Of a DNA stretch of 64,000 nucleotides, positions 4,258 to 23,223 are shown piece by piece. This stretch comes from a virus. The stretch is from IMG/VR virus record IMGVR_UViG_3300037760_000179, positions 29,708 to 93,707 of that record. One strand, given 5' to 3'. Both the position numbers and the translations under genes were made by a program. Below the pieces are notes generated by a model. That model did no database searches, was not told the origin of the DNA, and saw only the letters and a list, made by a program, of their open reading frames with translations. Each line of letters begins with the position of its first letter. Position 1 is the first letter of the stretch.

Positions 4258-5199
4258 TCAGCTGCCGACGGTGCCGGTGATACGGACGGCGGCGGACGGC
4301 TCCAGGACCACCGGGACGGTGATGCGCCGGCCCCACAGGTCCCACCCGTCGCGGCGGGCGATCCGCTCCGTCTGCACCTGAGTGCCGTTGTTGGAGGTGG
4401 CGTAGCCCGGGTCCACGTCGGCCTCGTCCGCCATGCCGCCGAGCTGGGTCCGGTCGAAGATCCACACGTCGTCGGTGGGCAGGTTCGCCACCGCCGTCGA
4501 GATGACCAGGTACTTGCCGATCTGCTCGATATCGGCGCCGTACACCGGGTTCCGCATGGTCTCCCGGCGCCGCAGGTTCGCGATCTTCTCATCCGATGCC
4601 ATCAGCGCGTAGTTGTTGGTGGACATGAGGATCGTGTCCGGCATGAACCCTTCGTTGGTGTCCACGATCACCGCAGCCGCCAACTCGATGTCCCGGTAGA
4701 TCTGCGCGTTCGCGACGCTGTCCCACGTGGCGATCGCCGCCGAGGTGGCGGTCACCGCCGACGCGACCGCCGCGGTGGTGAGCCGGTCGACCTTCCGAAC
4801 GACGGTGTTGACGACCTTCCGCAGGGCGATGTCGACCTCGTCGCCCATCCGCACCGACCGCTTGATCTTCTCGTCGGACAGGAACACCGCCTGGCCCCAC
4901 TTGGACACGGCGGCCAGGTTCGCCACCGGCGCCGAGGGGGTGTCGCGGGGGTACTCGGCCCCCGGCGCAACCGCCTCGATGTCACGCTCGTTGTAGACGG
5001 ACTCGCCGGTCTCGTACAGAACCGCACCGCCGGAGGTCCGCAGCCGGCGGGTCAGAATCTGGTCGGCGACGAACCGGGAGTCTGCGATAGTCCGCAGCCG
5101 CCGGGAGATCCGGTTCGGGCTCTTCAAGAACTGGTGGATGGACACCAACTGCGTGTTGGTGTCGATGGTCGGCGCTGCCGGAGGGTACGACCCGGGCAT
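4258..5199 (-). CDS. Major capsid protein (HK97 fold, actinophage type)
   Basis: 313 aa; EAVAPGAEYP, KWGQ, PDTILM and terminal PVVLEPSAAVRITG; position after protease and decoration genes. Confidence 0.85.
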   Translation of the reverse strand: MPGSYPPAAPTIDTNTQLVSIHQFLKSPNRISRRLRTIADSRFVADQILTRRLRTSGGAVLYETGESVYNERDIEAVAPGAEYPRDTPSAPVANLAAVSKWGQAVFLSDEKIKRSVRMGDEVDIALRKVVNTVVRKVDRLTTAAVASAVTATSAAIATWDSVANAQIYRDIELAAAVIVDTNEGFMPDTILMSTNNYALMASDEKIANLRRRETMRNPVYGADIEQIGKYLVISTAVANLPTDDVWIFDRTQLGGMADEADVDPGYATSNNGTQVQTERIARRDGWDLWGRRITVPVVLEPSAAVRITGTVGS

Positions 5200-5703: not shown

Positions 5704-6201
5704 CTAGTTCTCCTCCGTGTTGGCGCCGGTCAGGGCCGGCAGCTTGCTGAAGATCCGCTCGTCCTCGTCGGCCTCGGCAGCGGCCACGTCCTGCGGCTCA
5801 CCCACCTTGCCCTTCGGCTCGACCGGAACGACCAGACCCGGCTCCAGGCTGGCCAGCACCTCGCGGGCGCCGTCCGGGTCGGCCTCCCACGCCTTGGCCC
5901 AGTGGTCCCGGCGGGCGGGGGCGATACGCCCGTCGCCGACCGCGGCCTCGATGATGCGGTCCCGGTCCTCGACCCGCTGCCGCTCGGCGGCCTGCGCGCC
6001 CAGTTCGGCCTTGGACCGCAGGTCCTCCAGGGTGGCCGCCTCGATGGTGACCACCCCCTCGGGCAGGCTGGCCGCGACATTGGCCGGCTCCGGCGGCTGC
6101 TCGGCCTTGTCCGCCAGGGCGAGCACGGCAGCATTCACCTCGTCCGGGTCCGCGTCTTCGGCCAGGCCGAGCCGCTCCAGCGCCTCATTGCTCAGAGGCA
6201 T
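5704..6201 (-). CDS. Nested in-frame scaffolding protein (internal start)
   Basis: GAGGAGG RBS upstream of the internal ATG at 6201 (MPLSNEALERLGL); IEAAVGDGRIAPA helical scaffold motif, as in the Mu I/Z arrangement. Confidence 0.7.
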   Translation of the reverse strand: MPLSNEALERLGLAEDADPDEVNAAVLALADKAEQPPEPANVAASLPEGVVTIEAATLEDLRSKAELGAQAAERQRVEDRDRIIEAAVGDGRIAPARRDHWAKAWEADPDGAREVLASLEPGLVVPVEPKGKVGEPQDVAAAEADEDERIFSKLPALTGANTEEN

Positions 6202-9200
6202 GTCATCCTCCTCGGTTGATGGGTTTCCCGGCTCGGCGGCCGGCGTCTTGGTGTGCGGGTCTGCTGCGGAAGCCTGGGTCGTCCGGTCGAAGTCGAGCGA
6301 CTCGAACTTCGCCACCGATGCCGCCAGCCGCAGCACCTCGTCGATCGGCCGGTCTACGACCAGCCCGGTGACGGTCATGTCCGGGCGTGCCCCGGATGCG
6401 CGCACCGCGGCGGCACCGGACCACCGGTGGTGCCCGTCGACCACGTACCCGTCGTTGGAAGTAACCAGCAGCCCGCCGGGTAGCCATCCGTCCTTGGCCA
6501 TGAACCCGTACAGCTTCCCGGTCTTCGCGCCGGAGATCTCCGACTGCGACGGCTTGAGCGTCGTCGGGTCGATCGTCTCCTGCCAGACTTCGACACCCTG
6601 CGCACGCAACAGGTCCAGGAACGGCCGCATCTCCTCCTCGTTGGTGCCGAGCTGCGGCATCTTGGACCGGTCGAGGGCGTCGGTCTTGTCGGTTGCGAAC
6701 AGGGTGCCGTACCCGCCGACATCCAGGCGGGCGAGGTTGGCGCGTTTGGCTTCGTCGCCGCCGCCGGTCAGCGTCTTCAGGAGCCCATCCAGCTCGGTGG
6801 CGTCAATGGATGCGCCCTCGCCGCGGGCCAGGGCGTCGTAGGCGCCGCGGATGGCCCTGTCGCCACCGCTGGCCTTGCCGCCTGGGCGCCGCTGGGCGGT
6901 CCGCCGGAGCAGCTTCCCGTCCGGGCCGTACCGGCGGCCGTGGGTCATCTGGTTGTGGCTGGCGTGCGCCTCCACATCCGGCCGGGACTCGGCGGCCGAC
7001 GCGTACACCATCCGGGACGCGGCCACCCGCTCCGCGTCGTCACCCTGTTCCACGTATTCGACCCGCACCGGCACCGGCGGGCTGAACCGGATCGCGCCGT
7101 CGTCGTCGACGTCGAAGTCGACCCGCGCCACGGTGCCGTCGCCGTCGTTGGCGACGATCAGCCGCCTCGGCTGGGTATGGAACTCGCGAATCCACGCCCG
7201 GTCCGGCGCCTGCGCGTAGTAGGCGGTGCGCACATCATCGACCGACACCGCCGCGGCGGCGTGCACCATCGTCGGGTTCGGGTTCGGCAAGGTCATCTCC
7301 CCCTCGGAGGCGTCCACAGTCCGCCCGTCGTCGTCTTCGTCGTCCGGGTCCGGGTCAACGGCCGGGATGCCGGTGGCGGGCCTGTCGAAGCTGACGGTGG
7401 CAAACCAGCCGGCCAGGAGCTGCTTCTCTTCGGCCCGGCCGACCGCAGCGTCCTCGCCTGCAACGGCGGCAGCGGCGACCCACGCCGGGTCACGCACCCA
7501 GCCGGCAAACACCGTCGGATTGATATAGCTCGATAGAGCCAGGGTGGGGGTGTTGCCAAGCGCGGCAGAGACCTTCTCGGCCACCTCGCGGCGGCGCTGC
7601 TGAAACTCCCGCTTCGTCTTCGGCACGCTCCGCCGCTTCGCCACCTCCCGCAACGCGACCATGTTGGCGTGCACCGTGCGGAGATCCTTGAGCAGGAACC
7701 CCGCTGGCACACCGGTGGAGTGCATGTAGTCGCGGGTGTGGGCCTCGGTGGTGTCGAGCAGCCGGTCGTCACCTGTCCGGGTGGACAACCGCCGCGACAA
7801 CGCGGAGACGATCACCGGGTCGGCGGTCTCCAGCTGGATGTGGACACCCTTCTTGCCGATGAAGTCGAACCGGGCGGTGCCGCCCTCGACGGTGACGTGC
7901 CGGGCCAGCAGCGTGGTCGCCCCGTACGCCTGCTGCGACGCGCCGGTGTCGCGGGTCGACCCCGGCCGCATCCCGAGCCGTCGGATCAGCAGCAACGCCG
8001 CAGCGTCGTCGTTCGTCGCCGCGTCGCGTTCCACCGCATGGTCCAGCTTGTCCAGGTGCTCGTTCAGCTCCCGCACCCGCTGAAACTTGGCCGCCGCCTG
8101 CCCCTGCGTGTGCGCGGTCGAGTAGATCGCCTGCCGGCGGCCCTTGCCGTCGCGGCCGGTCACCAGCAGCGGCGCGTTGTCGAGGTCGTCGGCGAGGTGA
8201 ACGTCGGTCCACGCCGGGGGGATGGACTTGCCGAACCGCTCCCGGAAGCTGCCGATCTCATCCGGTGTGGCCGGGTGCATCAGATCGACCCACCGGCCGT
8301 CGCGGGGGTCACGCGGCTGGTCCGGGTCGAACGCGGCTACGTCACCCGCCGCGGACACCTTGCCCACGTTGCGCCGGTCACCGGGATAGACGCCTGTAAA
8401 CTGCTTGTGGTAGACGCTGCACAGACCCTTCGGGTCCCGGACATACTTCCGGAGCTGCCGTACGCACCGCGTCCAGTCCCCGGGAGTGTTCCACCGGATC
8501 TTCAGGCCGCCTTTGCCGGCGGGGCTCCAGTACCGCCGCAGCGGCGCGTCGGAGCGGGTGATCCGGCGGGACTGCTGCGCCTGCACCTCGACGGCCGGGG
8601 CTGGCATATCGTCGTCGGTCAGACCATCCACGTCCAGGTCCGAGCCCTCACCGGAAAGCGGGGTGTCGACGTTCTCGCCAGCGAACGCGACCCTGATCCG
8701 GTCCATCCTGACCGGCCCGGCCCGGTCGGCGAGGTGGGCCACGTTCATCAGGTCGTCGGAGTAGACCAGCGTCAGGTGCGGCCGGTAGGGGGCGTGCTGT
8801 TCCGGCAGGGCCAGCCCGTGCTGCCTGGCGGCCTCGGCAACAGCGGCCTCGGTCATGCCTTGCACGTCTTCGAGCCCGTCGCCGCCCAGCTCCAGCACGA
8901 TCGCCGTGTCCTTGTCGGCCCGGTGCGGGTTGAACGCGGCCAGAGCCATGCCGTCGACCTCGCCCGGTGGGATCACCTCGGCCAGGTCCCGGACGGCCTC
9001 GACGATCGCCTGCCGCGCGTCGGGCGGGTAGGCGTCGGCGTCACCGAGGAACAGCAGCGTCACGTGCAACTGGTCCTGGTCTTCGCCGCCGTCGGTGGCC
9101 AGCCGTTCGGCGTCGGCGGGTGACGGGAGCAGGGCAACCATCGCCCCCGACTTCACGTCGGACGCGGCAGCAACCTGCACCAGCGGGGGTGCCCCGCTGC

Positions 9201-11052
9201 CCGACCCGGCCGCCACCGTGACGCCCCGGGAGGTCGACCGGCGGACGGAGGAGAAGTAGAACAGGTCGGCAGCCTCGGCGACCTCCTCGACGTTGTCGAA
9301 GGCGCGGGGCAGAGGATGGTTCAGCGTGTTCGGCCACGACATTGACCAGCCGCCAACCTCGGCGCGCATCGTCAAGGCCGAGGGCGGTCCACCAGGCTCG
9401 CCGGGTGGGCCGTCGCGGGACACGACCACCGCACCGCCGGGCAGGTCCACCCGCAACGCGGTCAGGTCCGCCTCCGGGTCGGCAGTCTGGCCGAACTCGT
9501 CGAAACCCTCGTCGACGATGTTGATCGCGTAGCCGATGCGCTGCCAGTCGGCGAAGCTGTACCGCAGGTCCACCTGCCCGCCGTCGGGGGTGGGGGCACG
9601 CAGCCCCACCTGGTTGCCGTCGAGGAACACGTCCACCGGTCCGGAGGCGGTGTCGGCGCGGCCAGCGGCCGACAGCAGCACCACCGTGTCGGCGAGCTGC
9701 CGGGCCTCGCCCCGGGTCAGCCGGTGGGTGGTGTCGTCGGCGAGCAGCTCCAGCTGCCAGCCGTCGCCGTCGGGGGTGATCTGCGCGAACCCGGTCGGCG
9801 GGCTGGTGCCGGGGGTGTAGGTGGCGGCGGACACCGTGCCGTCGATTTCTTGCGGTCGCAGGTTCAGCAGCCGGCTCAGCTTCCCCGTCGCCTCCGCGTC
9901 CAGCGCCCCGGACGAGTTGGACCCGTAGGACAGGTGAACACCGTCTGGGCGGGCGTCCACGGTCAACGCCCCGGCGGCGGTTTCCAGGACGGTCGACAGG
10001 ATGCTGCCAGCCGGTCCGTCGGTCCACCGGCCGTCGCGGGGGTCACGCGGCTGGTCCGGGTCGAACGCGGCTACCGCCGTACCGGCCAGGGCGGCGAACA
10101 CCGGGCCGAGTACCTCGTCCACCACCCGCTGCAACGCGTCCCGCACCGGCTCCACGTCGTCCGGGTCCAGCTGGATCTCGGCCTGCTCCTCGTCACCTTC
10201 CCAGCCGATGGTGACCAGCCCGTTGCCGTACAACGCCAGCTCGACTTCGCTCCTCAGGCCCACCGAGTAGATCAGGGTGTTGGATGCGGCGTTGTCGGGG
10301 ATGTCCACGTCGAGCAGGTCGTCCAGCCCGTCGACCAGCTCCTGCGTCTCGTCGGTGGTGAGGGTGGTTCCGACGGTTCCGGCGGCGCCGAAGGTCAGGT
10401 CCACGTCGCCGACGTCGTCGGCGCGCAGGTGCAGGTCTCCGGAGGACGTTTCCAAGGTGACGCGTGGCAGGCCGGGACCGCCGCGGCCGCGGTTGCCGTG
10501 GGTCTGCTGGTTGTGCCCGCCGCGCAGGTGCGCCACCACGGCGGTGCCGGCGTCAGCCTGGACCCCGTACAGGGCACCCACATCCTGCAACGACTTGAGG
10601 GTGCCCACCCCGGGTGGGGTCACGCCGAGCAGCGCCACCGCGGTCAGCACGAACGGGTGGGTGTGGCCGATCTGGCAGCGGTGGTCGTAGGAGCCCTCCA
10701 CGGACCGGTCCGGGTAGGCCGATGCGGCGATGTCACCCAACCAGCCGGGCATGCCCACGAAGTCGCCGACGAGGGTGTGGCCCTGGTTCGTCAGGGCCAG
10801 GTTGTCAACCCAGCCGACGGCGGGGACACCGGTCGGGTTGCCGGCCCACAGCGGCGTCTCACCGCGGGAGTGGCCCAGCTTCAGCACCGGCCGGCGGACG
10901 GCAGGGCACTTCAGCGCGGCGGCTGCGGCTACCAGGTCGTCACGGGAGGCGGTCCACTGCCCGGTGCTGATCTTCCACTGGCCGGTGTGGACCAGCTCGA
11001 CCCGGTTCAGCCGGGCCAGCGGCGGGGCGGTGGGCACGGCGATCTCGACCAC
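5704..11052 (-). CDS. Prohead protease/scaffold polyprotein carrying 2H phosphoesterase, topoisomerase IB, ParB-like and unknown domains
   Basis: N-term Mu-I-like protease (LKLGH, PAVGWV, YPDRSVE, LTAVALLG); HVTL and HLTL 2H motifs; TopIB motifs IPPAW/GMRPG/GKKG/KDLRT/LGNT..SY; DGHHRW; C-term scaffold. Confidence 0.88.
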   Translation of the reverse strand: MVEIAVPTAPPLARLNRVELVHTGQWKISTGQWTASRDDLVAAAAALKCPAVRRPVLKLGHSRGETPLWAGNPTGVPAVGWVDNLALTNQGHTLVGDFVGMPGWLGDIAASAYPDRSVEGSYDHRCQIGHTHPFVLTAVALLGVTPPGVGTLKSLQDVGALYGVQADAGTAVVAHLRGGHNQQTHGNRGRGGPGLPRVTLETSSGDLHLRADDVGDVDLTFGAAGTVGTTLTTDETQELVDGLDDLLDVDIPDNAASNTLIYSVGLRSEVELALYGNGLVTIGWEGDEEQAEIQLDPDDVEPVRDALQRVVDEVLGPVFAALAGTAVAAFDPDQPRDPRDGRWTDGPAGSILSTVLETAAGALTVDARPDGVHLSYGSNSSGALDAEATGKLSRLLNLRPQEIDGTVSAATYTPGTSPPTGFAQITPDGDGWQLELLADDTTHRLTRGEARQLADTVVLLSAAGRADTASGPVDVFLDGNQVGLRAPTPDGGQVDLRYSFADWQRIGYAINIVDEGFDEFGQTADPEADLTALRVDLPGGAVVVSRDGPPGEPGGPPSALTMRAEVGGWSMSWPNTLNHPLPRAFDNVEEVAEAADLFYFSSVRRSTSRGVTVAAGSGSGAPPLVQVAAASDVKSGAMVALLPSPADAERLATDGGEDQDQLHVTLLFLGDADAYPPDARQAIVEAVRDLAEVIPPGEVDGMALAAFNPHRADKDTAIVLELGGDGLEDVQGMTEAAVAEAARQHGLALPEQHAPYRPHLTLVYSDDLMNVAHLADRAGPVRMDRIRVAFAGENVDTPLSGEGSDLDVDGLTDDDMPAPAVEVQAQQSRRITRSDAPLRRYWSPAGKGGLKIRWNTPGDWTRCVRQLRKYVRDPKGLCSVYHKQFTGVYPGDRRNVGKVSAAGDVAAFDPDQPRDPRDGRWVDLMHPATPDEIGSFRERFGKSIPPAWTDVHLADDLDNAPLLVTGRDGKGRRQAIYSTAHTQGQAAAKFQRVRELNEHLDKLDHAVERDAATNDDAAALLLIRRLGMRPGSTRDTGASQQAYGATTLLARHVTVEGGTARFDFIGKKGVHIQLETADPVIVSALSRRLSTRTGDDRLLDTTEAHTRDYMHSTGVPAGFLLKDLRTVHANMVALREVAKRRSVPKTKREFQQRRREVAEKVSAALGNTPTLALSSYINPTVFAGWVRDPAWVAAAAVAGEDAAVGRAEEKQLLAGWFATVSFDRPATGIPAVDPDPDDEDDDGRTVDASEGEMTLPNPNPTMVHAAAAVSVDDVRTAYYAQAPDRAWIREFHTQPRRLIVANDGDGTVARVDFDVDDDGAIRFSPPVPVRVEYVEQGDDAERVAASRMVYASAAESRPDVEAHASHNQMTHGRRYGPDGKLLRRTAQRRPGGKASGGDRAIRGAYDALARGEGASIDATELDGLLKTLTGGGDEAKRANLARLDVGGYGTLFATDKTDALDRSKMPQLGTNEEEMRPFLDLLRAQGVEVWQETIDPTTLKPSQSEISGAKTGKLYGFMAKDGWLPGGLLVTSNDGYVVDGHHRWSGAAAVRASGARPDMTVTGLVVDRPIDEVLRLAASVAKFESLDFDRTTQASAADPHTKTPAAEPGNPSTEEDDMPLSNEALERLGLAEDADPDEVNAAVLALADKAEQPPEPANVAASLPEGVVTIEAATLEDLRSKAELGAQAAERQRVEDRDRIIEAAVGDGRIAPARRDHWAKAWEADPDGAREVLASLEPGLVVPVEPKGKVGEPQDVAAAEADEDERIFSKLPALTGANTEEN
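8290..8340. repeat. 51-bp direct repeat copy 1 (encodes VAAFDPDQPRDPRDGRW)
   Basis: Identical to 10024-10074. Confidence 0.95.
10024..10074. repeat. 51-bp direct repeat copy 2
   Basis: Identical to 8290-8340; spacing 1734 bp keeps the frame. Confidence 0.95.
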
Positions 11053-11354: not shown

Positions 11355-14300
11355 TCAGGTTCCCCTGCTGGCAAAGGCGTCGAGCACATCCGCGAGGCTG
11401 CTGGCGACGTCCGCCGCCTCCCGCGAGCCGTACGGGTTGCGCTGCTTGTCCCGCACCTCGTCAACGATCGCACGCAGTTTCGCCGACGCTGCGGCGAAGT
11501 CACCGGTTGCGTCGCCCTCGGCCAGGATCTGTTCGATCCGGGGCAGGTCAACCGAGTACCGGATCCGGTCGAAGTCTCTCTGGAACCGGCTGCGCACCCC
11601 GTCGAGCGGCTGCGGGACCCGCTGCCGGTAGTCATTCTCCAGCCGCCGGGCGGCGGACAGAGCGAACCGTCGCGCCTCGTAGCCGTTGTCCCTGGCCTCG
11701 GTCAGTCCGTACTCGCGTAGCCGTGCGGCGGTAGCCAGATCACGGTCCGGGTCGCTGCCGGCCCGCAGCATTTCGATGATCTCGTCTCGGTGCTGCGGGT
11801 CCAACCCAACCAGGGACATAGCGCCGAGCCCGTCGCCCCGGTACTGGCCCTGTAGCAGCGGCTCCCGCAGCCTTTCGGGCACACTGCGGTCGACTTTCGC
11901 CTTGACCGCGAGCATGTTCCACGTACCGCTCCGGTCCAGACCGGGAGTCTGCGCACGCAGCATGCCGACCACCTCGCCGACACCAGCCCCATCGGCCCTG
12001 CGCCACTCGGCCAGGTCGATGCCGGTGTTCCACGGGATGCCCGCCCCCTCGACGGCCTCGGCGAACGCTCTGGCTTCCTTCTGGGTGCGGAAACCGCTCA
12101 GAACTGGAGCGTTGCGCATGACACGCGGGACAACGATGTCGTAGCCGCTTCTACCCTTCATCACCAGCAGTTGGCCGCTCGGGGACAGCAAGCCCCACTT
12201 GGCCCCGGCGTCATCCGGAATCCGGTCCGCGAGCGCCTCGTCGGCCTCTAGCCACGCGGTCAACTCGCCGAGCCCCTGGAATCCCTCACCGGAGTCCAGC
12301 CGGGTCTTGATGTCGGCAAGTTCGGCGGCCTTCCTCGCCGCCGCCTTCTCCGCCGGATCCGTGGGCTCCGGCGTCTCGCCCCGCCGGGCCAGTTCCTGTT
12401 TGAGGTTCCGGTCGACCCGCATGAAGCGTTCCTGCGCCTGCTCCAGGGCGTCCTGGTCGCGGAACGGCCGACCCACCCGGGCGCGCAGTGCCTCAATGTC
12501 CTGGCGGGCCTCGCGGGTTCTGGCGACGTGGCGGGTGAGGGTCCTCTCCATGCGGCCGAGGGCGTTCTGAAGATCGCCGATGACGTCGGTCGAGTTGAGG
12601 TCGCCGCGGCGAACACTGACGGACCCGGGTACGCCGACCAGCTCGACGCTGAAGCCGGTTTCTGTCCGGCCGGCCCGCAGCGGGAACCCCCGAAACTCTC
12701 CGATCACGGTGGGCGCGTCGCGTGCTGTCCGGATCTGCTTGCGCAGCTGCTGCTGCGCCTCGGTCCGGTCCCGGTAGTCGGTGCCGCCGAGGGATATCTT
12801 GAACCTCTTGCCATCGACACGCTTGGGAAGCGCTTCGTTGATCTGGGCGATGGCCTGTTCGGACCGGGCGACGTCGGCCTCACCGTCGGTGATCCGCTTA
12901 GCGATGTTGCGCTGGTCAGCCTCGTGGTTACGCCGCGCCCGCTGCAACCGCGTCAGATCGGCGCTGGCGTCGGCGTGCTCGATCAGCCACCGGTTGCCGG
13001 TCCCGAGGGCGGTGACTTCCTGCGCGGTCAGCGCGAACTCGCCGACATCGTCCACCTCGCGCACATCCAGCCGGCCCCGCATGACCTGGTTGATGAACGT
13101 GCTCTTGGTCGTGATCGCCTGCCAGATGTACGCGTCGAACGACTGCTCGGTCACGTACCGGATGACCTCTACTTCGGGGTTCTTGTTGCCCTGCCTGACG
13201 ATGCGGCCGTCGCGCTGCTGCACGTCGACCGGCCGCCACGGCGCGTCCACATGGTGCAGCGCAACCGCCCGGTCCTGCACGTTGGTCCCGACGCCCATCT
13301 TGGCAGTGCTGCCGACCAGAACAGCCACCCGGCCGTCTCGGGCAGCGGCGAACAACTCGGCCTTCTCCTGGTCGGTGTTCGCCTCGTGGATGAACCGGAC
13401 CCTGTTGCGGGGGACGCCCCGCTCGACCAGCTTGTCCCGCAGCGCCTCGTAGGCGACGAAGTCGGCCAGGCCGCTACCAGCCTCGTCCTGGTCGGACCCG
13501 CTGGTCTTCTTCCTCTTGCCGCCGGGGGTGCCGATGTCGCTGAACACCAGTTGCAGCGCACCCGGGACGCCGACGGGGTTGCCGGCTCGGTCGGTGTACA
13601 CCGCATCCTTGTTCTTCTCGTAGATGGCCGCGATCTTGCCGGCGGCGACGTCCAGCTTCGTCGGCTCGGCGGTGTCGCGTCCCACCATCTGAAGGTCCAG
13701 CGCGGCGGCCCGCCCCTCGCCGGTGATCTTCAGCATGTTGTCGCCGCCCTTTTCGGGCGGGTACGGAATCGTCTTGGCGCGGGCGACCAGCTGCTCCATG
13801 AAGTCCAGCAGTTCCTGGCTGGGCGGCACCACCACGGTCTCCGGCGCCCGGGTACGGTTGCCGTCGGCGTCGACCCGCTCCACCAGGTCGGGAGTCTTGA
13901 CGATGTCCTTCAGGTCATCGGCGGTCTTCACGTCGGAGGCGACCAGCCACGGCCGCAGGAACTCCGGCAGGTTCACGAACTTCGCGAACCGGGAGTGCTG
14001 CCGCAGCCCGCCGGTCGGCGCGACCTCCAGCCTGGTGGTCATCTCGCCGAAGTTCGCCGCCCACTCGTCGAATGTCTCGACGCCCATGTCCTCAAGCAGG
14101 TCCGGACGCAGGTAACGCATCATCGTGTACGCCTCGGACACCGAGTTGGCGATCGGTGTCGCGGTGGCCAGCGTCGCCACCCGGTCGTTACGCGAACGCA
14201 GGTGGTGCAGCTTCATGTGCAGATCGGTGGCGATCTGACTGCCGGGAATGCCCAGGCCCTGAATGCCCGACGGGGTACGGAGGTTCTTGTAGGTGTGGGC

Positions 14301-17300
14301 CTCGTCCATGAACAGGTAGTCGATGCCGGTGCTCTCGAACGTCAGCCCCGGGTCCCGGTCGGTGCTGCCGACCTGGTCCTTGATGCGCTGCTCGGCCTTC
14401 TCGACCTGCCCCTCAAGCTCCTTGACGGTCGGGTCGTTGTCCAGCGCCTCCCCTACCAGCTTCCGAAGCGCCTCGTCGCTGGCGCCTTCGTTGTCGGCGC
14501 GGACCCTCTCCACCACCTGGGCGCGGCGCCTGGCGGCCGACCGCCGCAGCGGCTCAACCTCCCCCGCCAGGTAGTCCCGCTCGGTCTCGCTGGACACCGG
14601 AATCCGCTTGAACGCGCCCTGGGTGAGGATCACCGCGTCCCAGTCGCCGGTGGCTGCCTTGGCGACGATCTCGCGCCGCTTCTCGCCGCCCTTGTCGCCC
14701 TTCAGGTCGTCGGACCCGATCGCGAGCACACGCGCCTGCGGGTAGCGCTCCAGGAACTCGCTGGTCATCTGCTCCAGCATGTGGTTGGGCACGACGATGG
14801 CGGGCTTGCGCACCAGACCCAACCGGCGCATCTCCATCGCACCGATGACCATGGTGGTGGTCTTGCCGGACCCGACCTCGTGCCACAGGCCAACCGAGGG
14901 CTCGGCGATGATCCGCCGGACAGCCGCGCTGCGGTGCGGGAAGGCGTAGAAGCCGTCCCGGTTCAACCCTGGCAACTCCAGGTCCGAACCGTCGTACGAA
15001 CGCAGCACCAACGAGTTGAACCGGCGGTTGTACGTGTCCTGAAGGTCCCTCTGCCGGGTGGGGTCTTCCCACAGCCACTCGGCGAAGCGGTCTGCCATCT
15101 CCTGGGCCTTCGCCTGCGCCTGCTCGGTCTTGTCCCGGTTGAGCTTGCCGTCCTCGGTGACCCGGATCGGCTTCTGCCCCAGGATGTCCTCGGCGATGTC
15201 GACGCCGGACATCTCCCGGATGCCCCACTCGGTGGTCGCGGCGGTGCTCCGCTTGCGGTCCGACCTGACCTTCCAGGCGTTCGCGTGCGGACGCTCAACG
15301 GTCAGCGTCGGGTCCCGCAGGATCTCCCGCAGGAACTGCTGCACGTACGCCGGTTCGATCCACCCGGCGCCCATCTTGGCGTTGATGTCAACCGGGGTCA
15401 GGTCCGGCGGCAGGACCCGCTCCAACGCCTCCACGTTCGGCGCGAACGCGTCCGGGTCCTCGGCCGCAGCCAGGCGGGCCACGTCGAGCTTCTGCCGCAC
15501 GTTGCCTGACAGGTACTCGGCCGCCGGTGCGAGCCGGCCGCTACCTGGCTCGTCGAAGACCAACGTACCGAGACGGTCCCGGGCGGTCGGCTCGTCGACG
15601 TCGAGCAGGTCAGCGATGTGGGCCAGGTCGACCTCGCCGAGCTGGTCCACGGTGATCGCCAGCGCGTCTGCGGCGCTTTCCGCGCTGGTCCTGGGGGTGC
15701 GGGGGGCGATCGTGCGACGGTGGAAGATGTCGGTCTTGGTGGCGTTGCCCGTGAGCGGGTCGTAGTTCTCCAGGGCGCGCACCGCGGCCGAGAACGGGTC
15801 GCTGCGGAATCCGCCCTGCGGTGGGCGGGTGCGGGTGACCCGCTGCTCCTCAACGTCGTCCTCGTCCTCGCCGCCCTTCGGGGCGCGCCGCTTCTCCGTG
15901 AAGCGGCTGACCGGCCCCCACTTGGCGACGTAGCCGTCGTAGATCTCGTTGAGGTCTTCGCGGAGCCGCTTCATCTGCTCGGTGTCGTCGCCGCTGGAAG
16001 CCTCGGCGTTGACCAGGTCGATGCTGGTGTCGCGCAGCCGCAACAGCTCCCGCAGCTCCTCCCGCTGTGTCGCGGGAACCTCGTGCGGCTGCTCCACCCC
16101 GCGGGTGACACGGCTGAAGGTGCCGTCCGGGAGGGCACGCAGGAACCCCTCGGGCACACGGTCCGGCCCGGTTTCGGCGAACGCGGGACGCGGGCGCTGC
16201 CCGGGGGTCTGGGTCAGCCCCATCGCCTGAGCCCGTGAGACGACCTTGTCCAGCGCCTCCCTCAGCGCCGGCCCAGCGTCCGCGTCGCCGCGAACACCGA
16301 AGGCATCCTTTGGTCCGCTGCCCATGACCATCGTCCCGAGCACCATGTCGGGGTTGTCGAGGAAGTGCCCGTTGACCGACACTTCCCGGTCGTCGTCGCC
16401 GATGGTGATCTTCCGGGCAGCCTGGAACGGCAGCCCGGCATACGGCGTGTCGGGCTCGCGGCGGCGGAACACCAGCAGGTCGGTCACCACCGCCGTGCCG
16501 GCCGCCTTCTCGTGCGCCCGCGACGGCAGCCGCACCGCCCCGACGAGGTCAGCCAGTTCGGCCATTTCCTCCCGCGCGGCCGGGCTCATCGAGTCCATCG
16601 TGTACCGGGAGGTGATGAACGCCCCGATCCCGCCCGGGCGGGTCATCCGCAGCGACTTGAGGATGAAGTGGTTGTGCATGTTGTGACGGCGGCCCGGGTT
16701 GTACTCCGGGTCAACCAGCTTGGTGTCGGAGAACGGCACGTTGCCGATGGCGGCATCGAAGGCACCGTCGCGCGTCTTGGTGTCAGTGAACGACTCTGCC
16801 CGCACGTCCGCGTTCGGGTACAGGGCGGCCGCGATCGAGGCGGTGATCGGGTCCAGTTCCACCCCGGTCACGTGGGTGTCGGGTGCGACGTCCTCCGGCA
16901 CCATCCCCATGAACGTGCCCGACCCGCTGCCCGGCTCCAGCACCTCGCCGCCGTGGAAACCGAGGCCTCGCACGGCGTCCCAAATCGCGGCGACGTAGTC
17001 CGCGTCGGTGTAGTGCCCGGTGCGGGTCGTTCGCCGCGCCGCCGCGAACTCCTCCGGCGTGAGCAGGTCCTTCAGCTCGGCCTGCGCGTCGGCGAACCTG
17101 CCACGCGGGGGTGGCTCCTTGAACACGTTGGGCAGCGAACCCCACCCGGACCAGCGGGCCAGTTTCGCCTGGTCCTCAGCCGACGCCGGCCGGCCGGATT
17201 CTTGCAGGTCCCGCAGGGTCCGCAGCGCCACAAGGTTGGCGTCCAGCCGCTTGGTCGCCGTGTTCGGCGCGAGGTCGGCCTGACTGCGCGGGCGGAAAAC

Positions 17301-20243
17301 CTGGGTGGCGTCTACTCGCCAGTCTCGCCCTCCGGCGCCTCGTCGTCCTCCGCCCGGGGCAGCATCTCCGCCAGCACTTCCCGCTCCGCGGTCGGCCGGG
17401 CCGCCATCATCCGTTCCCACCGCTCCTGGAACGGCCGGTCCGCCGGGATCGTCTCCTCCAGCGCCTCCGCCCGGTCGAGTACCCGGGTCTCGATCTGTTC
17501 CCCCAGGTTCTGGAAGAACGTCTCCCGGCTGCTCATCTGGGCGTACTCCGCCGGCCGGTACTTCTGCCAGTGCGCCATCGCCATCCGGCCGTACTGATTC
17601 ATCCGAACCCGGCCCCCCTCTGTCGACCTCTGGCAGGACGGATCGTAGCAGCGCCTGGCCGATCTCCTCCCGCGTCGCCGATTTCGACACCTCGACTCCA
17701 CGGCGGACGGCGGTGCGGCGCAGCTGGTCCCCGCTGAACCCTTCCAGCGGGTCACCGGCCTGGTTACCGGCCTTCCAGGTCTCGATGCGGGCGGCCAACC
17801 GCTCGCGGAACTGGCCACCCTTGCCGCCTAGGGTGCCTTTAGGCCAGCGTGGATGGTGGTCAGCATTCCATGCCGCCTCGACGTCGCCATCGCCGTCGAG
17901 TTCGCCAGCCACGCGGGCCAGCGCCCACAGCAAGTCCTCGATGTCATCGTCGGCTGCGCCGTCCGCACTGTCAGCCCGGCGGCGGCGGCTGATCCGCGCC
18001 CGCAACTGGCCTCGGCAGCGGCTGCGCCCCTCGCACTGCCAGTACCGGCCCACCGGGTAGTCAGCCAGCGCCCCGGCCAGCGTCTCGTACACGGTGCCGT
18101 CGATCTCGCGGCACGGACCGCACGTGTTGGTGTCGTTGCGCTCGTCCGCCACCCACACCACCGGCACGCCCAGCGCCTGTAGCCCGCGGAACACCGCCGC
18201 ACGGCCCAGATGCACCGCAGCGTGCACAGCAGCTGCAAGCTCCCCGGCGACAAACCCCCGCGCCGCGCCGCGCTGCTGGGTGGTGGCGGTGGAAGTCAGA
18301 TCCTCGGCCGCCCGGGTGACCGCGGCGGCGGCGTCGTCGGGGTCGGCGTCGGGGCCGGCTGCCAACACGGCCCGGGCAGCGGCGGACGTGTAGCCGCCGA
18401 CGATCAGGTGGGCGGTGGCGTCGGCCAGCTGGTCCAGCCGTGCCGTGTCCACGTCGGGTAGGCCCGGGTCGGCCCCCTGTGCGGCGACCGCGGACCGGGC
18501 GGTGCGGGCCGACGTGGCGGCCACGTCACGTAGCTGCGCCCGCAGCCCACCGGCCACCGCCCCGACCAGGCTGGGGCCGACCGTCAGTGTCGCCAGGGTG
18601 GCGACGGTTCCGGCGGAGGCGGCTTCGGCTGCGGCCTGGGCCAGCGGCGGCACGATGGGCGCGGCCAGCAGCGGCCAGGCGGCCAGCAACGCCAGCAGCG
18701 CGGCGGACGAGTCTTCCTCGACCTGCCGCATCTCGTCCTCGGCCTGCTGCTGCTCGTCCTGTTCGGTCTGGGCGGCGACGAACAGGTCCGGCTGCTCGTA
18801 CCGCACCGGGCCGGGCGGTGCGGCAGCCTGCACCGGGCCGGATGGCGCCGGCTTGGGCTCAGGCCCGGGCGGGGTCGGCCCGGGTGCGGGACTGCCTCCG
18901 GCCGGCGGGTCCTGGCCGGGCACCTGCACCGGCCGACTGCGGTCCGGCGCCGGCAGCCGGTACTCTTTGCGGACCCACTCCTCCAGCCCCGGATCGGCTG
19001 ACAGGGCACCGGAGGCCAGCAGCAGCTGCAACGACTCGGCGGTCACCTCACGGCGTGAGGCGATCCCCGACGCCCACACCTTCGGCACCGGCTCGTCTTC
19101 GTCGTCCCAGTTCCACGCGACCAGCCGGGCGGCGACCTGCCGGGTCACCACGTCGGCGATCTCCTCAGCGATGGACTCCAGGGCCAGCGTCCAAGCGTCG
19201 ATGAACGCGACGCCCAGCGCCCTGTTGCCGGTGGCGGTCTGCCCGAGGTCGAGGTGGCCCATCAGCGCCATGGTGGACATCTGCTGGTCCAGCCACTTCA
19301 CGAAGCCCATCGTGTCCGGGGTGCCACCGGACAGGCCCACCAGCTCCAGCCACGCACCGGGTGGCATCGCCGCGCCGGCGGTGTCCCCGGCCCGGGCGGC
19401 AGAGGCCATCTGCTGCGCCTGGGTCATCTGCGCCGGGGTCGGTGACATCGACTCCGGCCAGCGGACCACCGGCACACCCATGCCGAACCGGCGGGAGGAG
19501 GTGGCGAGGACCCGCATCATCTCCCGCTTGAACAGCCACGGCGCGAACGCCGGCCTAAGCAGCGAGGTGCCGAACCAGGACGCGCCCTCACGTTCGTGGC
19601 AGTACCACGCCAGCCGGTCCGCGCCGATCTCCGGCTTGTCGAACGGCCCGGCTGCCATCTCCTGGGAGATGCCGGCGAACGTGCCCCGCCGGGGCTCCAC
19701 GTGGATCTGGGTGATGGTGTGCTGCGGCCGGTCCCACAGGCCGACCAGGTGCGCCCGCCCGTCGCCGCCGATCTTGGCCTCAAGCTCGAACCCGGCATGC
19801 CCGAACGGGAGCATCGTCAACGCCGAGCGGAGGTGGTCGTGCCACGACAGGCCGTGGGCCGTTCCCACACCCGGGTTGTCGCGGCCGATCACCGGCAGGT
19901 CCAGGTCGTGGGCCACCAGGTCGACCACCTCGCGGCGGCAGCCGGTGGCGTCGATCTGCCAGGTGGCACGCAGCAGCATGTGGCAGTAGCCGGCCAGCAC
20001 CGCCGCCAGCTTCGCATCCCGCCGCATCGCGTTGTAGGTGGTCACGGACTGGGGCCACGCCACGTCCGGTACGGTCTCCAGGGCGTCGACCAGCAGCCCC
20101 TCGTACGCCGAGTCCTCGACGTACCCGCGCAGCGACGTGGGCGGCTTGAACACCTTGGCGCCGTTGGCGTGGGCGGCCATGATGTCCGCCGGGTGCGCCA
20201 TCACCGTGGCGCCGTTGACCGGTCCGTCTGGCAGCGGGTCCAC
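11355..20243 (-). CDS. Portal (DUF935-like) - MuF-like - DarB-like N6-adenine MTase/SNF2 helicase fusion, 2962 aa
   Basis: Portal N-term (GTSLLRPAF.PW, RRFGMGVP); MuF Cys motifs (NDTNTCGPCREIDG, CEGRSRCRG); MTase EPGSGSG and GNVPF; helicase HEVGSGKT, DEAH, TATP, QRDGRIVRQGN; no internal stop. Confidence 0.9.
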   Translation of the reverse strand: MDPLPDGPVNGATVMAHPADIMAAHANGAKVFKPPTSLRGYVEDSAYEGLLVDALETVPDVAWPQSVTTYNAMRRDAKLAAVLAGYCHMLLRATWQIDATGCRREVVDLVAHDLDLPVIGRDNPGVGTAHGLSWHDHLRSALTMLPFGHAGFELEAKIGGDGRAHLVGLWDRPQHTITQIHVEPRRGTFAGISQEMAAGPFDKPEIGADRLAWYCHEREGASWFGTSLLRPAFAPWLFKREMMRVLATSSRRFGMGVPVVRWPESMSPTPAQMTQAQQMASAARAGDTAGAAMPPGAWLELVGLSGGTPDTMGFVKWLDQQMSTMALMGHLDLGQTATGNRALGVAFIDAWTLALESIAEEIADVVTRQVAARLVAWNWDDEDEPVPKVWASGIASRREVTAESLQLLLASGALSADPGLEEWVRKEYRLPAPDRSRPVQVPGQDPPAGGSPAPGPTPPGPEPKPAPSGPVQAAAPPGPVRYEQPDLFVAAQTEQDEQQQAEDEMRQVEEDSSAALLALLAAWPLLAAPIVPPLAQAAAEAASAGTVATLATLTVGPSLVGAVAGGLRAQLRDVAATSARTARSAVAAQGADPGLPDVDTARLDQLADATAHLIVGGYTSAAARAVLAAGPDADPDDAAAAVTRAAEDLTSTATTQQRGAARGFVAGELAAAVHAAVHLGRAAVFRGLQALGVPVVWVADERNDTNTCGPCREIDGTVYETLAGALADYPVGRYWQCEGRSRCRGQLRARISRRRRADSADGAADDDIEDLLWALARVAGELDGDGDVEAAWNADHHPRWPKGTLGGKGGQFRERLAARIETWKAGNQAGDPLEGFSGDQLRRTAVRRGVEVSKSATREEIGQALLRSVLPEVDRGGPGSDESVRPDGDGALAEVPAGGVRPDEQPGDVLPEPGGTDRDPGTRPGGGAGGDDPGGPAVPGAVGTDDGGPADRGAGSAGGDAAPGGGRRGAGGRDWRVDATQVFRPRSQADLAPNTATKRLDANLVALRTLRDLQESGRPASAEDQAKLARWSGWGSLPNVFKEPPPRGRFADAQAELKDLLTPEEFAAARRTTRTGHYTDADYVAAIWDAVRGLGFHGGEVLEPGSGSGTFMGMVPEDVAPDTHVTGVELDPITASIAAALYPNADVRAESFTDTKTRDGAFDAAIGNVPFSDTKLVDPEYNPGRRHNMHNHFILKSLRMTRPGGIGAFITSRYTMDSMSPAAREEMAELADLVGAVRLPSRAHEKAAGTAVVTDLLVFRRREPDTPYAGLPFQAARKITIGDDDREVSVNGHFLDNPDMVLGTMVMGSGPKDAFGVRGDADAGPALREALDKVVSRAQAMGLTQTPGQRPRPAFAETGPDRVPEGFLRALPDGTFSRVTRGVEQPHEVPATQREELRELLRLRDTSIDLVNAEASSGDDTEQMKRLREDLNEIYDGYVAKWGPVSRFTEKRRAPKGGEDEDDVEEQRVTRTRPPQGGFRSDPFSAAVRALENYDPLTGNATKTDIFHRRTIAPRTPRTSAESAADALAITVDQLGEVDLAHIADLLDVDEPTARDRLGTLVFDEPGSGRLAPAAEYLSGNVRQKLDVARLAAAEDPDAFAPNVEALERVLPPDLTPVDINAKMGAGWIEPAYVQQFLREILRDPTLTVERPHANAWKVRSDRKRSTAATTEWGIREMSGVDIAEDILGQKPIRVTEDGKLNRDKTEQAQAKAQEMADRFAEWLWEDPTRQRDLQDTYNRRFNSLVLRSYDGSDLELPGLNRDGFYAFPHRSAAVRRIIAEPSVGLWHEVGSGKTTTMVIGAMEMRRLGLVRKPAIVVPNHMLEQMTSEFLERYPQARVLAIGSDDLKGDKGGEKRREIVAKAATGDWDAVILTQGAFKRIPVSSETERDYLAGEVEPLRRSAARRRAQVVERVRADNEGASDEALRKLVGEALDNDPTVKELEGQVEKAEQRIKDQVGSTDRDPGLTFESTGIDYLFMDEAHTYKNLRTPSGIQGLGIPGSQIATDLHMKLHHLRSRNDRVATLATATPIANSVSEAYTMMRYLRPDLLEDMGVETFDEWAANFGEMTTRLEVAPTGGLRQHSRFAKFVNLPEFLRPWLVASDVKTADDLKDIVKTPDLVERVDADGNRTRAPETVVVPPSQELLDFMEQLVARAKTIPYPPEKGGDNMLKITGEGRAAALDLQMVGRDTAEPTKLDVAAGKIAAIYEKNKDAVYTDRAGNPVGVPGALQLVFSDIGTPGGKRKKTSGSDQDEAGSGLADFVAYEALRDKLVERGVPRNRVRFIHEANTDQEKAELFAAARDGRVAVLVGSTAKMGVGTNVQDRAVALHHVDAPWRPVDVQQRDGRIVRQGNKNPEVEVIRYVTEQSFDAYIWQAITTKSTFINQVMRGRLDVREVDDVGEFALTAQEVTALGTGNRWLIEHADASADLTRLQRARRNHEADQRNIAKRITDGEADVARSEQAIAQINEALPKRVDGKRFKISLGGTDYRDRTEAQQQLRKQIRTARDAPTVIGEFRGFPLRAGRTETGFSVELVGVPGSVSVRRGDLNSTDVIGDLQNALGRMERTLTRHVARTREARQDIEALRARVGRPFRDQDALEQAQERFMRVDRNLKQELARRGETPEPTDPAEKAAARKAAELADIKTRLDSGEGFQGLGELTAWLEADEALADRIPDDAGAKWGLLSPSGQLLVMKGRSGYDIVVPRVMRNAPVLSGFRTQKEARAFAEAVEGAGIPWNTGIDLAEWRRADGAGVGEVVGMLRAQTPGLDRSGTWNMLAVKAKVDRSVPERLREPLLQGQYRGDGLGAMSLVGLDPQHRDEIIEMLRAGSDPDRDLATAARLREYGLTEARDNGYEARRFALSAARRLENDYRQRVPQPLDGVRSRFQRDFDRIRYSVDLPRIEQILAEGDATGDFAAASAKLRAIVDEVRDKQRNPYGSREAADVASSLADVLDAFASRGT
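17312..17602 (-). CDS. Nested out-of-frame gene, TnpV-like helical protein (96 aa)
   Basis: GAGGGGG RBS, ATG at 17602, high GC3 codon usage. MNQYGRMAMAHWQKYRPAEY...FFQNLGEQI...AEREVLAEML resembles TnpV-like proteins. Confidence 0.75.
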   Translation of the reverse strand: MNQYGRMAMAHWQKYRPAEYAQMSSRETFFQNLGEQIETRVLDRAEALEETIPADRPFQERWERMMAARPTAEREVLAEMLPRAEDDEAPEGETGE

Positions 20244-20673: not shown

Positions 20674-23223
20674 CTAGAACGACACCGTCTCCAGGTCCAC
20701 CTGGCCGTTGCCGCCGAACGGGTCCGGGTCGGGGTCCGGCGCACCTCCTACGGTGGCGTGCCCGGCCCGGTTCAGCAGCGGCGCCCACTTGGTGATCGAC
20801 ACCCGCGTCGCCAGCGACCCGACGTCCACGGTGTCGTCGTGCGCCGCCGCCGGGAACGCCGCGTGCTCATCGATCCACGTCGGCAGCCAGTGAGCACCGG
20901 CCGGCAGCCACACCCGCCCACCCGAGCACCACGCCGAGTACGGCAACGCCCGGGACAGCTTGTCCTGCTCGGCCTGAACCGGCGAGACCGGCACGCCACT
21001 CTGGGTGGCCTCCTTCACCAACGTGAACCCGTACTGGGACGCCTCCGCAAACAGGGTGTCCAGTTGCCACCGCTCCACCAGCGGCCGGGCCTGCGCGAAG
21101 TGCTGCTCCTCGCCGATCTGCGCCCGGGTCACGTCCAGCAACACCAGGTCCCCGGCCAGCGTCCGCGCCCATGCGGCGATCACCGTGTAGTCGGCCGAAG
21201 TGCGGGTGGACGCGGCAAGGTCGACCGTGCCGAACCGCCACGAGTCCCGCAGGTCCGCAACCCGGCCACCGAGGTAGATCCGGTGCTCTCCGGCGGGGGT
21301 CCAGTACCGCCACCAGAGGCGCTTGAACAGGTTCCCCTCGGCGGGTGCCGGCCGCTGCTGGAACAGAGCCGCCCACACGTACTCGCCGACGTCTTTGCGG
21401 CGTTCTTCCCAGTCCTTCGCGGTCCGGCCGCGGGCGGAGGTCATGTACTCGCCCTCGGCGCGACCGAGCAGGTCCGTTTTCGGGTTCTCGCACTGGGCGG
21501 GGATCGAGACGACCCGCCACTTTCCGCCGGCGGCCTTGTCGCCCTCGGTCTCCAGCAGCTTGCCAGCGAGGTCGGATTCGTGCCAGCGTGTCGTCATCAG
21601 CAGCACTTTGCTGTTCGGGCCGAGCCGGGGAATGGCCACGGCCTGCCAGAACCGCCACGCGCGCTCGCGGTATTTGACCGAATTCGCCTGTTCGAGGTCT
21701 TTGTGAGGATCGTCTATAATGAGCAGATCCACAGCCTTGCCAGATAGACTGCCAGCGATCCCTACGCATGAGACACTCCCATGTGTACCTCTGACCCGCC
21801 AGTAACCTGCGGCTGGGCGCTCATAGAGCCGCAGCCCAAGGTCGATCTGATCCTCGGCCCCACTGAACGTCTCCACGTCCAGCCGCAGCTGCCAGCCCCA
21901 CCGTCGCGCTATGTCATCGGAGTACGACACTATGGCAACGCGAGTCCCGGCGTCCTGCGTGAGGGTCCATAGGGGAAAGAAGCGGGAGCACCGCTCGCTA
22001 TTGTGGGTCGGCAGCATCCCTTCGCCGACCAGGTACAGCCCGTCATCGGTGTCGACCGTGATGCAGCGGCCGACGTTCGGGGCCTCTGCCGCGATGGCGG
22101 TTATCGAGGTGCGCTTCCGGGCGCCTCCCAGCCGTACCGCAGCCTTGCGCTCCAGTCGTGCCGGCCCTTGGTCGTGCGGAGTGAAGGTGACCCGCCACAT
22201 CGCGAGCTTCCCCTGAATCCCCGACGACGAGAGCTTCGGAGGCGTCGGACGGTGCACATGGGCTCGGTAGCCGAGCGTACGGATCAACTCGGCGGTACTG
22301 CGGACCAGGCCCTCGTTGGCGTTGTCGAAACTGACCTGCCCACTCGCGGACACATGCCCGTCCGTGTCGATCAGACCGGCCAGCAGCGCCCTACGCTGCC
22401 GAGTGGAGGCCCGCAGGTACGCCGCCGGGATGTGCTTGTTGCCGAAAACGCCGGCCTCACGCAGGTCACGCTGCATTTGGCCGCTGTAGTACGTGGTGAT
22501 GATCCCGGTGGTTGGATGGACGCAGCGCGCGGTCGCGGTGTAGGCCATCTCGTAGCAGTCGTCCGGGTGGTGCGTGATGGCGGGCTTGGTCGTGCTGCCA
22601 TCGCCGAGCCACACGCCAAGCGTGTACGGCTCGACGGGAAGGTCGACATCCGGGCAGTCAAGGGCCTCACGCAGCGGCAGGAAGAAGCGGTACCAGTGGC
22701 CGCGCTTTCCCGGCGGCCCCGACGATAGAGGGACGGCGGCGAGCTGCCTGGTCTCCATCGTGAGCCAGCGTCCACGCTTACGATCCCAGACCGTCCACTC
22801 ATGCGCAGGGTGGACCAGGATTGATGTGTGGTCGCTGAAGTGGACGCGCAGCGAGGCCATCGCGGGCTCGTGGACCTCCGCCACCTTGACCTGCCGCCCA
22901 CTGGGGTGGAACACGACCGACCCAGGACGCAAGTCACCGTGCCGGACCCACCCATCAGGCGTTGGTACGCGGGTGTCGTCCGCTACCAGCTTGCCTTCCT
23001 GAGGTGGAGCGAAGATCATCAATCTCTTGTCGCGCCCGTCGGCGAGATCCAGCAACGCCTGGTCGACGAGCCGCAGCGCCGGGGTCTGGATCATCCGGTT
23101 GTCAAGCTCAACCGCCATGTCCCCGGGCGCGGCCCAGCGGCGCGGCTTGGACTCGAACGAGCGGGCGGCATACTCCCAAGGTGACAGCTCGGGGCGCCTG
23201 TCCATCATCACCATGCGAACCAC
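20674..23223 (-). CDS. terL: Terminase large subunit containing an intein
   Basis: Walker A PPQEGK/S, Walker B LLIIDDP, TRWH, ALFQQRP, nuclease DLAAS, FP..HDDTVD; exact start uncertain. Confidence 0.95.
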   Translation of the reverse strand: MVRMVMMDRRPELSPWEYAARSFESKPRRWAAPGDMAVELDNRMIQTPALRLVDQALLDLADGRDKRLMIFAPPQEGKLVADDTRVPTPDGWVRHGDLRPGSVVFHPSGRQVKVAEVHEPAMASLRVHFSDHTSILVHPAHEWTVWDRKRGRWLTMETRQLAAVPLSSGPPGKRGHWYRFFLPLREALDCPDVDLPVEPYTLGVWLGDGSTTKPAITHHPDDCYEMAYTATARCVHPTTGIITTYYSGQMQRDLREAGVFGNKHIPAAYLRASTRQRRALLAGLIDTDGHVSASGQVSFDNANEGLVRSTAELIRTLGYRAHVHRPTPPKLSSSGIQGKLAMWRVTFTPHDQGPARLERKAAVRLGGARKRTSITAIAAEAPNVGRCITVDTDDGLYLVGEGMLPTHNSERCSRFFPLWTLTQDAGTRVAIVSYSDDIARRWGWQLRLDVETFSGAEDQIDLGLRLYERPAAGYWRVRGTHGSVSCVGIAGSLSGKAVDLLIIDDPHKDLEQANSVKYRERAWRFWQAVAIPRLGPNSKVLLMTTRWHESDLAGKLLETEGDKAAGGKWRVVSIPAQCENPKTDLLGRAEGEYMTSARGRTAKDWEERRKDVGEYVWAALFQQRPAPAEGNLFKRLWWRYWTPAGEHRIYLGGRVADLRDSWRFGTVDLAASTRTSADYTVIAAWARTLAGDLVLLDVTRAQIGEEQHFAQARPLVERWQLDTLFAEASQYGFTLVKEATQSGVPVSPVQAEQDKLSRALPYSAWCSGGRVWLPAGAHWLPTWIDEHAAFPAAAHDDTVDVGSLATRVSITKWAPLLNRAGHATVGGAPDPDPDPFGGNGQVDLETVSF
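22000..22989 (-). mobile_element. Class 3 intein with LAGLIDADG homing endonuclease (330 aa)
   Basis: Inserted between K and S of Walker A; block B HPAHEW, F-block GRCITVD, terminal THN/S; LGVWLGDG and LLAGLIDTDG. Confidence 0.9.

Follow-up and report, generated by a model that had tools for sequence, protein, structure and literature searches.

Only for the DarB protein of phage P1 are packaging, co-ejection and protection in cis from type I restriction known; about 45 copies are estimated per P1 head, packaging requires Hdf/DarA as well as further Dar proteins, and the Dar proteins are co-ejected (PMC12810830). Here we describe an open reading frame (ORF) that carries a DarB-like methyltransferase-helicase on a phage portal protein. 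It lies in IMG/VR virus record IMGVR_UViG_3300037760_000179, of which we analysed positions 29,708 to 93,707, a stretch of 64,000 nucleotides (nt) called the window below. The ORF comprises 2962 codons plus a stop (11355..20243, residues numbered 1-2962); positions are those of the window and the features described are on its minus strand. BLASTP aligns the ORF product with P1 DarB in three collinear blocks (23-28% identity, E 1e-12 to 1e-19), and the two share the motifs GNVPF and EPxxGxG. In P1, darB adjoins the portal gene prt but is transcribed divergently from it, whereas here the DarB-like part is covalently joined to a portal-MuF chain.

DarB also typifies a domain combination of the polyvalent proteins of phages and conjugative elements (Iyer, Burroughs, Anand, de Souza and Aravind 2017; PMC5512222). 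That paper describes LPD36 with an EcoKI/TaqI-like adenine methylase and a SWI2/SNF2 helicase as this dyad, defines the GXGU motif, and reports 2H domains fused to head proteins and effector domains (PBECR, 2H, InPase) fused to MuF and portal domains, with packaging and injection predicted. The ORF likewise unites at least two effector-type domains in one chain (portal, MuF-like, methylase, helicase), placed between the gene for TerL, the large terminase, and the protease and capsid genes. It differs in that the dyad itself is on the portal polypeptide, an arrangement not found in the passages of the paper that were consulted, and in that a nested +1-frame gene precedes the dyad.

A MuF-type domain after the portal, followed by variable C-terminal cargo, is also the plan of the MuF polymorphic toxins (Jamet et al. 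2017; PMC5576092) and of actinophage genes annotated 'MuF-like minor capsid protein' or 'MuF-like fusion protein'. One of these, gene 5 of Arthrobacter phage KBurrousTX, joins a MuF-like part to a glutamine deamidase, has a Cys/Arg motif in common with the ORF and is followed by a gene annotated as an Imm35-domain antitoxin. In contrast to the toxins, the cargo here is a DNA-modifying enzyme of antirestriction type, the gene downstream is a 58-codon ORF without a family match, no immunity gene is evident, and the MuF part is fused to the portal and not encoded separately. The methylase-helicase core also occurs, at 32-36% identity over about 1600 residues, in giant DarB-like virion proteins (PHROG 10089; 'PLxRFG protein') of phages of the PEp14, SopranoGao and Gervaise types; there, unlike here, the giant protein has a gene to itself and in many cases includes a lytic transglycosylase domain.

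Domains of the ORF and continuity of the fusion

The ORF begins with a GTG codon at 20243, preceded by a GAGGGGGG ribosome-binding site, and runs uninterrupted to its stop with an overall G+C content at third codon positions (GC3) of 0.88. This bears out an earlier note on this DNA, which had read a single continuous frame with portal, proline linker, MuF, leader, N6-adenine methyltransferase and SNF2 helicase, apart from corrections to the MuF domain and the leader that are given below. The portal domain is of the Mu/G20c type and occupies residues ~55-430 (18954..20081). Pfam Portal_Mu (PF06074) matched residues 69-430 with E=1.4e-43, scoring 150 bits where the cut-off is 23.9 (155 bits when the genome was searched), and the match to PHROG portal family 113 extended over residues 55-527. 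The AlphaFold2 model had a predicted local distance difference test score (pLDDT) mostly above 90 over residues 60-430, and its top Foldseek matches were the portals of G20c, P23-45, P74-26 and Mu (E 1e-14 to 1e-9). No other match to PF06074, PF04860 or PF05133 was found in the genome, which is rated 99% complete. By these matches residues 1-430 are the phage's sole portal protein, so every portal subunit would be synthesised with the DarB-like enzyme attached. Beyond the portal domain lies a proline-rich linker (residues 431-489, 18777..18953) that includes V471-Q-A-A; the earlier note's proline linker is thus real, and it is disordered in the model (pLDDT below 50 over 444-489).

Residues 490-752 (17988..18776) were confidently modelled as a helical bundle with a small beta unit (pLDDT 92, predicted template modelling score 0.90), the latter holding the invariant residues C708, C711, C737, C743 and R744. 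The Pfam MuF models PF04233 (Phage_Mu_F) and PF06152 (Phage_min_cap2) matched neither the protein at E<=1 nor the genome at E<=10, and no solved structure matched the domain at E<=0.001. Against BFVD, whose targets are predicted structures with automatic names, the domain gave 46 matches at E<=1e-3; those with names were nearly all called 'minor capsid protein' or 'phage head morphogenesis domain', and the best was from Arthrobacter phage Vibaki (TMq 0.68). A tblastn search found a 48-residue Cys/Arg motif in common with 'MuF-like minor capsid protein' genes of Arthrobacter phages, which are likewise positioned after the portal gene, and the homologue in locus L002 (715 residues) stops exactly at the end of this domain. 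Because the Pfam models fail while predicted folds and gene position agree, we call this head-morphogenesis domain MuF-like by fold and position, and not a member of the Pfam families. The MuF domain of the earlier note therefore stands in its fold similarity, its Cys/Arg motif and its place after the portal, and falls short in Pfam membership.

The core of the cargo (residues 981-2507) is a DarB-like enzyme in two catalytic parts. Residues 981-1265 (16449..17303) form an LPD36-like N-terminal region and an N6-adenine methyltransferase that aligns with residues 91-275 of P1 DarB. Within it are motif I (EPGSGSG, 1103-1109), motif IV (NVPF, 1168-1171) and the LPD36 motif GXGU in the form GWGS (1033-1036); the Pfam models Eco57I and Methyltransf_25 matched around residues 1100-1220, both below their cut-offs. 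Residues 1716-2507 (12723..15098) form an SNF2/SF2 helicase-translocase, with Walker A (GSGKT, 1791-1795), DEAH (1980-1983), TATP (2027-2030) and motif VI (QQRDGRIVRQG, 2342-2352). Its Pfam matches were each weak alone (SNF2-rel_dom 1787-2063, Helicase_C 2280-2352, ResIII); PHROG families 10089, 11801 and 62 also matched, and on the helicase side the P1 DarB blocks are 784-1202 and 1468-1686. The 'DarB-like antirestriction' family PHROG 10089 covered residues 953-2641 with E=0, and the SAM-binding (S-adenosylmethionine), Walker A, DEAH and motif VI residues were invariant or nearly so across 13 homologues. With its family match, its collinearity with P1 DarB and its intact catalytic motifs, the methylase and SNF2 helicase make up a complete predicted enzyme, as the earlier note had held.

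A C-terminal extension of 455 residues (2508-2962, 11358..12722) travels with the cassette. It belongs to no known family and gave no Pfam match; among the relatives P0192-P0202, in which the cassette is 59-78% identical, it is conserved to the last residues.

Three homologues from other assemblies (P0003, P0004 and P0005; 2930-3119 residues) align at full length with 64-75% identity and have the identical order of parts throughout. Since these independent sequences are equally continuous, the fusion is not an assembly error, and the possibility raised in the earlier note that a sequencing error had joined separate genes loses its ground. Nor does an internal start appear to make the DarB part alone, a second doubt of that note. 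Stand-alone DarB-like relatives begin at the equivalent of residue 982 (MFRP...), where the ORF has V982 encoded by GTT, with V977 encoded by GTA; there is no ATG, GTG or TTG at residues 977-985, and the nearest in-frame GTG codons, at 942 and 1005, have no usable Shine-Dalgarno sequence before them. At the cassette boundary we found neither an internal start led by a Shine-Dalgarno sequence nor a canonical slippery site. A programmed frameshift yielding a short portal was also considered and is unsupported, the only candidate heptamers being CCCGGGN/AAAGGGC, none of them at a domain boundary. Taken on this evidence, the ORF is very probably a true translational fusion.

A nested gene and the start of the cargo

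Between the MuF-like domain and the methylase the ORF passes through a stretch that had been read as a leader. Residues 881-977 (17313..17603) are rich in Gly, Asp, Pro, Ala and Arg and of low complexity, and in the long frame their GC3 falls to 0.40-0.52 while the first codon position rises to 0.90-0.95. The explanation lies in a 96-codon gene nested in the +1 frame (17312..17602), which has an ATG behind its own GAGGGGGG, a TAG stop and G+C contents of 0.71, 0.44 and 0.94 at the three codon positions. We therefore replace the leader by a dual-coding region. The nested product resembles Pfam TnpV weakly (E=0.006, 16.9 bits, below the cut-off), and we refer to it as TnpV-like.

Related loci with a DarB-like cassette were found by a profile scan of viral contigs; a single-sequence scan of these contigs with residues 981-1500 had returned nothing. 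An intact homologue of the nested gene was present in all 12 of these loci (13 of 13 with the window), in the same +1 frame and directly before the methylase. The homologues have 91-153 codons, their own start codon and a GC3 of 0.85-0.98, and many have a Shine-Dalgarno-like motif upstream. The DarB frame is open through the nested gene in all 13 loci, and in the 12 relatives it continues for 415-1362 codons upstream of the methylase. The related loci with the TnpV-like gene just upstream of the methylase are in L062-L073 and L140. The Gly/Asp/Pro/Arg-rich linker thus appears to be, in effect, the shadow of the nested gene, and it would still be translated because the enzyme has no start codon of its own.

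The dual coding bears on whether the long ORF could be an artefact or go unused, two genes having been joined by an error or the DarB part being made alone in vivo. Openness of the frame over residues 881-977 says little against this, because with a first codon position of 90-95% G/C stops hardly arise there. A separate upstream gene would, however, need an in-frame stop, and none occurs in 2962 codons; the frame is likewise open in the three full-length homologues and the 12 related loci, and the codons around the canonical DarB N-terminus and the GTGs at 942 and 1005 offer no usable start. We regard this reading as very improbable.

The first part of the cargo cassette lies earlier, at residues 753-880 (17604..17987); P0192 shares this segment from residue 741 onwards and has neither a portal nor a MuF part. 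At the junction of MuF-like domain and cargo this region holds the motif HPRWPKGTLGGKGGQF (residues 797-812, nt 17808-17855). Relatives whose cargo is unrelated have similar motifs between their domains (32 matches, against 2 in shuffled sequences). The neighbouring 1782-residue protein contains AAFDPDQPRDPRDGRW twice and HNQxTHG twice, and neither pattern was found elsewhere in the genome; these sites are at 10018-10065, 8284-8331, ~10495-10515 and ~6937-6957. HPR-type motifs also part domains in relatives with other cargo, and V-x-A-A precedes several of the joint motifs. It is a reasonable guess that the joint motifs are a processing or packaging signal. A SAP/HeH-like DNA-binding motif had been suspected by eye at ~835-866; residues 761-980 gave no Pfam match, and we do not claim it.

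Portals and cassettes of relatives, and the head operon

The uniqueness that the earlier note implied for the fusion is overstated. We queried 1.84 billion cluster representatives with the portal domain in a full HMMER search and took the best 150 matches together with two further homologues. Only 23 of these 152 proteins have 550 residues or fewer, as expected of a portal alone; three fall at 550-650 residues and were assigned no reading, 70 at 650-820 residues correspond to portal plus MuF-like domain, and 56 exceed 820 residues and carry further cargo. In 37 of the longest proteins the cargo included Zeta toxin (7), ADP-ribosyltransferase (5), AAA_33 (5), SAP (4) and alpha/beta hydrolase. 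In relatives of 880-2966 residues (P0041, P0109 and others) the cargo stands behind the MuF-like domain and includes DUF7178, and one of these proteins has an intein. The DarB cassette occurs, among the portal relatives listed, only in the ORF's own small family, which amounts to four 90%-identity clusters in the protein collection. Portal-MuF-like fusions therefore predominate in this clade of portals, and more than a third of the proteins have extra cargo; the rare feature is a DarB part borne by the portal chain. No near-identical phage was present among the 50,697 records of the collection searched, and none of its records covers at least 80% of the protein.

A search with the cassette leads elsewhere. 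Its closest relatives (59-83% identity) are non-portal proteins of 1900-5000 residues. A giant ORF that contains DarB comes immediately after a portal or portal-MuF gene in L069, L071 and L062, and in L063 a portal gene lies upstream in the locus. In the more distant loci the portal before the DarB giant is of HK97 type, and that of L071 ends in a Pfam Phage_Mu_F domain. The N-terminal parts of the giant ORFs of L069 and L073 matched no Pfam family. When metagenomes were scanned with P0192, most of the matches were to Zeta toxin, and the P0192 contig was not among them. Because cassette relatives sit in separate giant genes after the portal gene in other loci, the ORF is most readily explained by neighbouring genes that merged in frame and kept the conserved head-module order of portal, MuF and polyvalent cargo. 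What is new here is DarB on the portal chain, the clade-wide use of portals as cargo carriers and the conserved nested gene; the known categories, polyvalent proteins and MuF proteins with cargo, are extended only.

The full viral record is a single genome of 93,707 bp. The G+C content of the window is 68-77% and nearly all of its genes are on the minus strand; we take the phage to be one of about 94 kb and high GC, with a host lineage that is probably actinobacterial. Along the minus strand the head operon runs from TerL through the portal-DarB ORF, the 58-codon ORF and a 1782-residue protease fusion to the major capsid protein. The large terminase (20674..23223, 849 residues), directly upstream of the ORF, matched PHROG 38 (E=1.8e-81) and Pfam Terminase_6C, LAGLIDADG_3 and Hom_end; a LAGLIDADG/homing-endonuclease insert at residues ~265-326 suggests an intein. 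The 58-codon ORF (11125-11301) lies between the portal-DarB and protease genes behind a strong ribosome-binding site, GAGGAGG, and had no family match in Pfam. The 1782-residue protein (5704..11052) joins a prohead protease, a 2H phosphoesterase, a type IB topoisomerase and a Mu-like protease-scaffold part (PHROG 3894 and 2976; Pfam Topoisom_I, 2_5_RNA_ligase2 and Mu-like_Pro). Its 2H part is LigT-like and its topoisomerase IB core of eukaryotic type, so that it is a second head-assembly protein bearing enzyme cargo; the relative in L001 is a 710-residue version with the 2H and Mu-like parts only. The major capsid protein (4258..5199) matched PHROG 1650 (E=6e-70) and Pfam Phage_capsid_4.

Directly after the capsid gene, positions 286-3677 encode an FkbM-type methyltransferase, a fusion of a glycosyltransferase (DXD) with LicD, and one protein whose PHROG match to UDP-glucose dehydrogenase is weak and falls below the threshold. 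These genes may be a virion glycan-decoration operon. In two related loci, a few kb upstream of the portal (L140:486-2780 and L069:584-1795), we noted a fusion of a PCMT methyltransferase with the C-terminal domain of a lanthipeptide dehydratase, and an ATP-grasp protein of MvdD type.

A proposed portal-borne antirestriction cargo

The ORF is a genuine fusion in the head operon, and we propose that the DarB-like enzyme is cargo carried by the portal, cut free by the prohead protease and ejected with the DNA. Of the explanations considered this is the best, and we rate it a little above an even chance. Portals are dodecamers with the C-terminus of each subunit towards the inside of the capsid, where the cargo would thus end up: each subunit would take its own copy into the procapsid on the inner (crown) side, and up to 12 copies would be loaded without a DarA/Hdf-like pathway. 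By our estimate 12 copies (about 3 MDa) would take up no more than a few per cent of the space that 94 kb of DNA requires, and such a load is feasible because P1 is estimated to hold about 45 copies of DarB in each head. Action in the next host would require the enzyme to leave the portal, and hence a cleavage. The prohead protease encoded next door would make the cut, at the linker or at the joint, a role we give it by analogy because other internal head proteins are processed. The freed enzyme would then leave with the DNA and methylate it or shield it against restriction in the next cell, as is thought for P1 DarB.

The earlier note had gone part of this way, in proposing that the fusion fixes up to 12 DarB-like enzymes at the DNA exit vertex with no dedicated packaging pathway. 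The conserved fusion and the sole portal agree with this, and a covalent link to the portal could plausibly take the place of a dedicated route of packaging; that the enzymes stay fixed at the exit vertex is unsupported. A search of the genome for DarA_N (PF18788) gave no match, but the control genomes were silent too.

Several points weigh against the proposal. We infer packaging, copy number, cleavage, ejection and antirestriction activity alike. The MuF label lacks Pfam support, as described above, and because roughly 100 codons in the long frame are atypical, less full-length protein might be made. The best-studied MuF protein, SPP1 gp7, is reportedly not co-ejected in vitro, so that a MuF anchor alone does not imply delivery.

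With cleavage no more than predicted, the cargo may instead never be released, all or most portal subunits keeping their enzyme, which would methylate or translocate on DNA during its packaging, or hold and feed the genome end at the exit. This is the reading the earlier note favoured. Held by long flexible tethers (431-489 and 881-977), the enzyme could get to DNA close to the channel, and MuF-type proteins bind both portal and DNA (SPP1 gp7, as cited in PMC5576092). A sealed head, however, offers no SAM or ATP, and a cytoplasmic methylase could modify progeny DNA untethered. The related cassettes, moreover, are found in separate non-portal giants, so portal attachment is unneeded for function, and the P1 Dar proteins act after co-ejection (PMC12810830). 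We think permanent retention rather unlikely. A further form of it, in which twelve tethered enzymes make a virion-resident methylase-translocase ring at the inner portal mouth, working on the genome while this passes the portal in packaging or exit, with the nested TnpV-like protein as obligatory partner or regulator, is in our view distinctly doubtful.

Alternatively, the cargo might be cut off, or be active, before assembly and serve the producing cell, for instance by methylating progeny DNA, the fusion only coupling its expression to the late genes. Many phages protect themselves with unpackaged methylases, and packaging is here a prediction. Against a purely intracellular role, relatives carry Zeta toxin and ADP-ribosyltransferase at the same position behind portal and MuF, where they make sense as delivered cargo; the DarB-like giants of related loci lie inside head modules; and the PHROG and P1 precedents are virion proteins. 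This makes an enzyme confined to the producing cell unlikely, and we return to portal-carried, co-ejected cargo as the preferred explanation.

If the enzyme is packaged as predicted, writing it onto the portal chain would be the simplest loading rule for an injected antirestriction enzyme: it would fix the dose at no more than 12 copies and dispense with a multi-protein pathway such as P1 has in its Dar proteins. Together with the neighbouring protease-2H-topoisomerase fusion, the head operon would offer a compact case for capsid targeting, cutting free and ejection of large enzymes. The DarB cassette and the conserved gene that overlaps it and travels with it lend themselves to the study of dual coding, and the survey of relatives points to a whole clade of actinophage-type portals as routine carriers of cargo.

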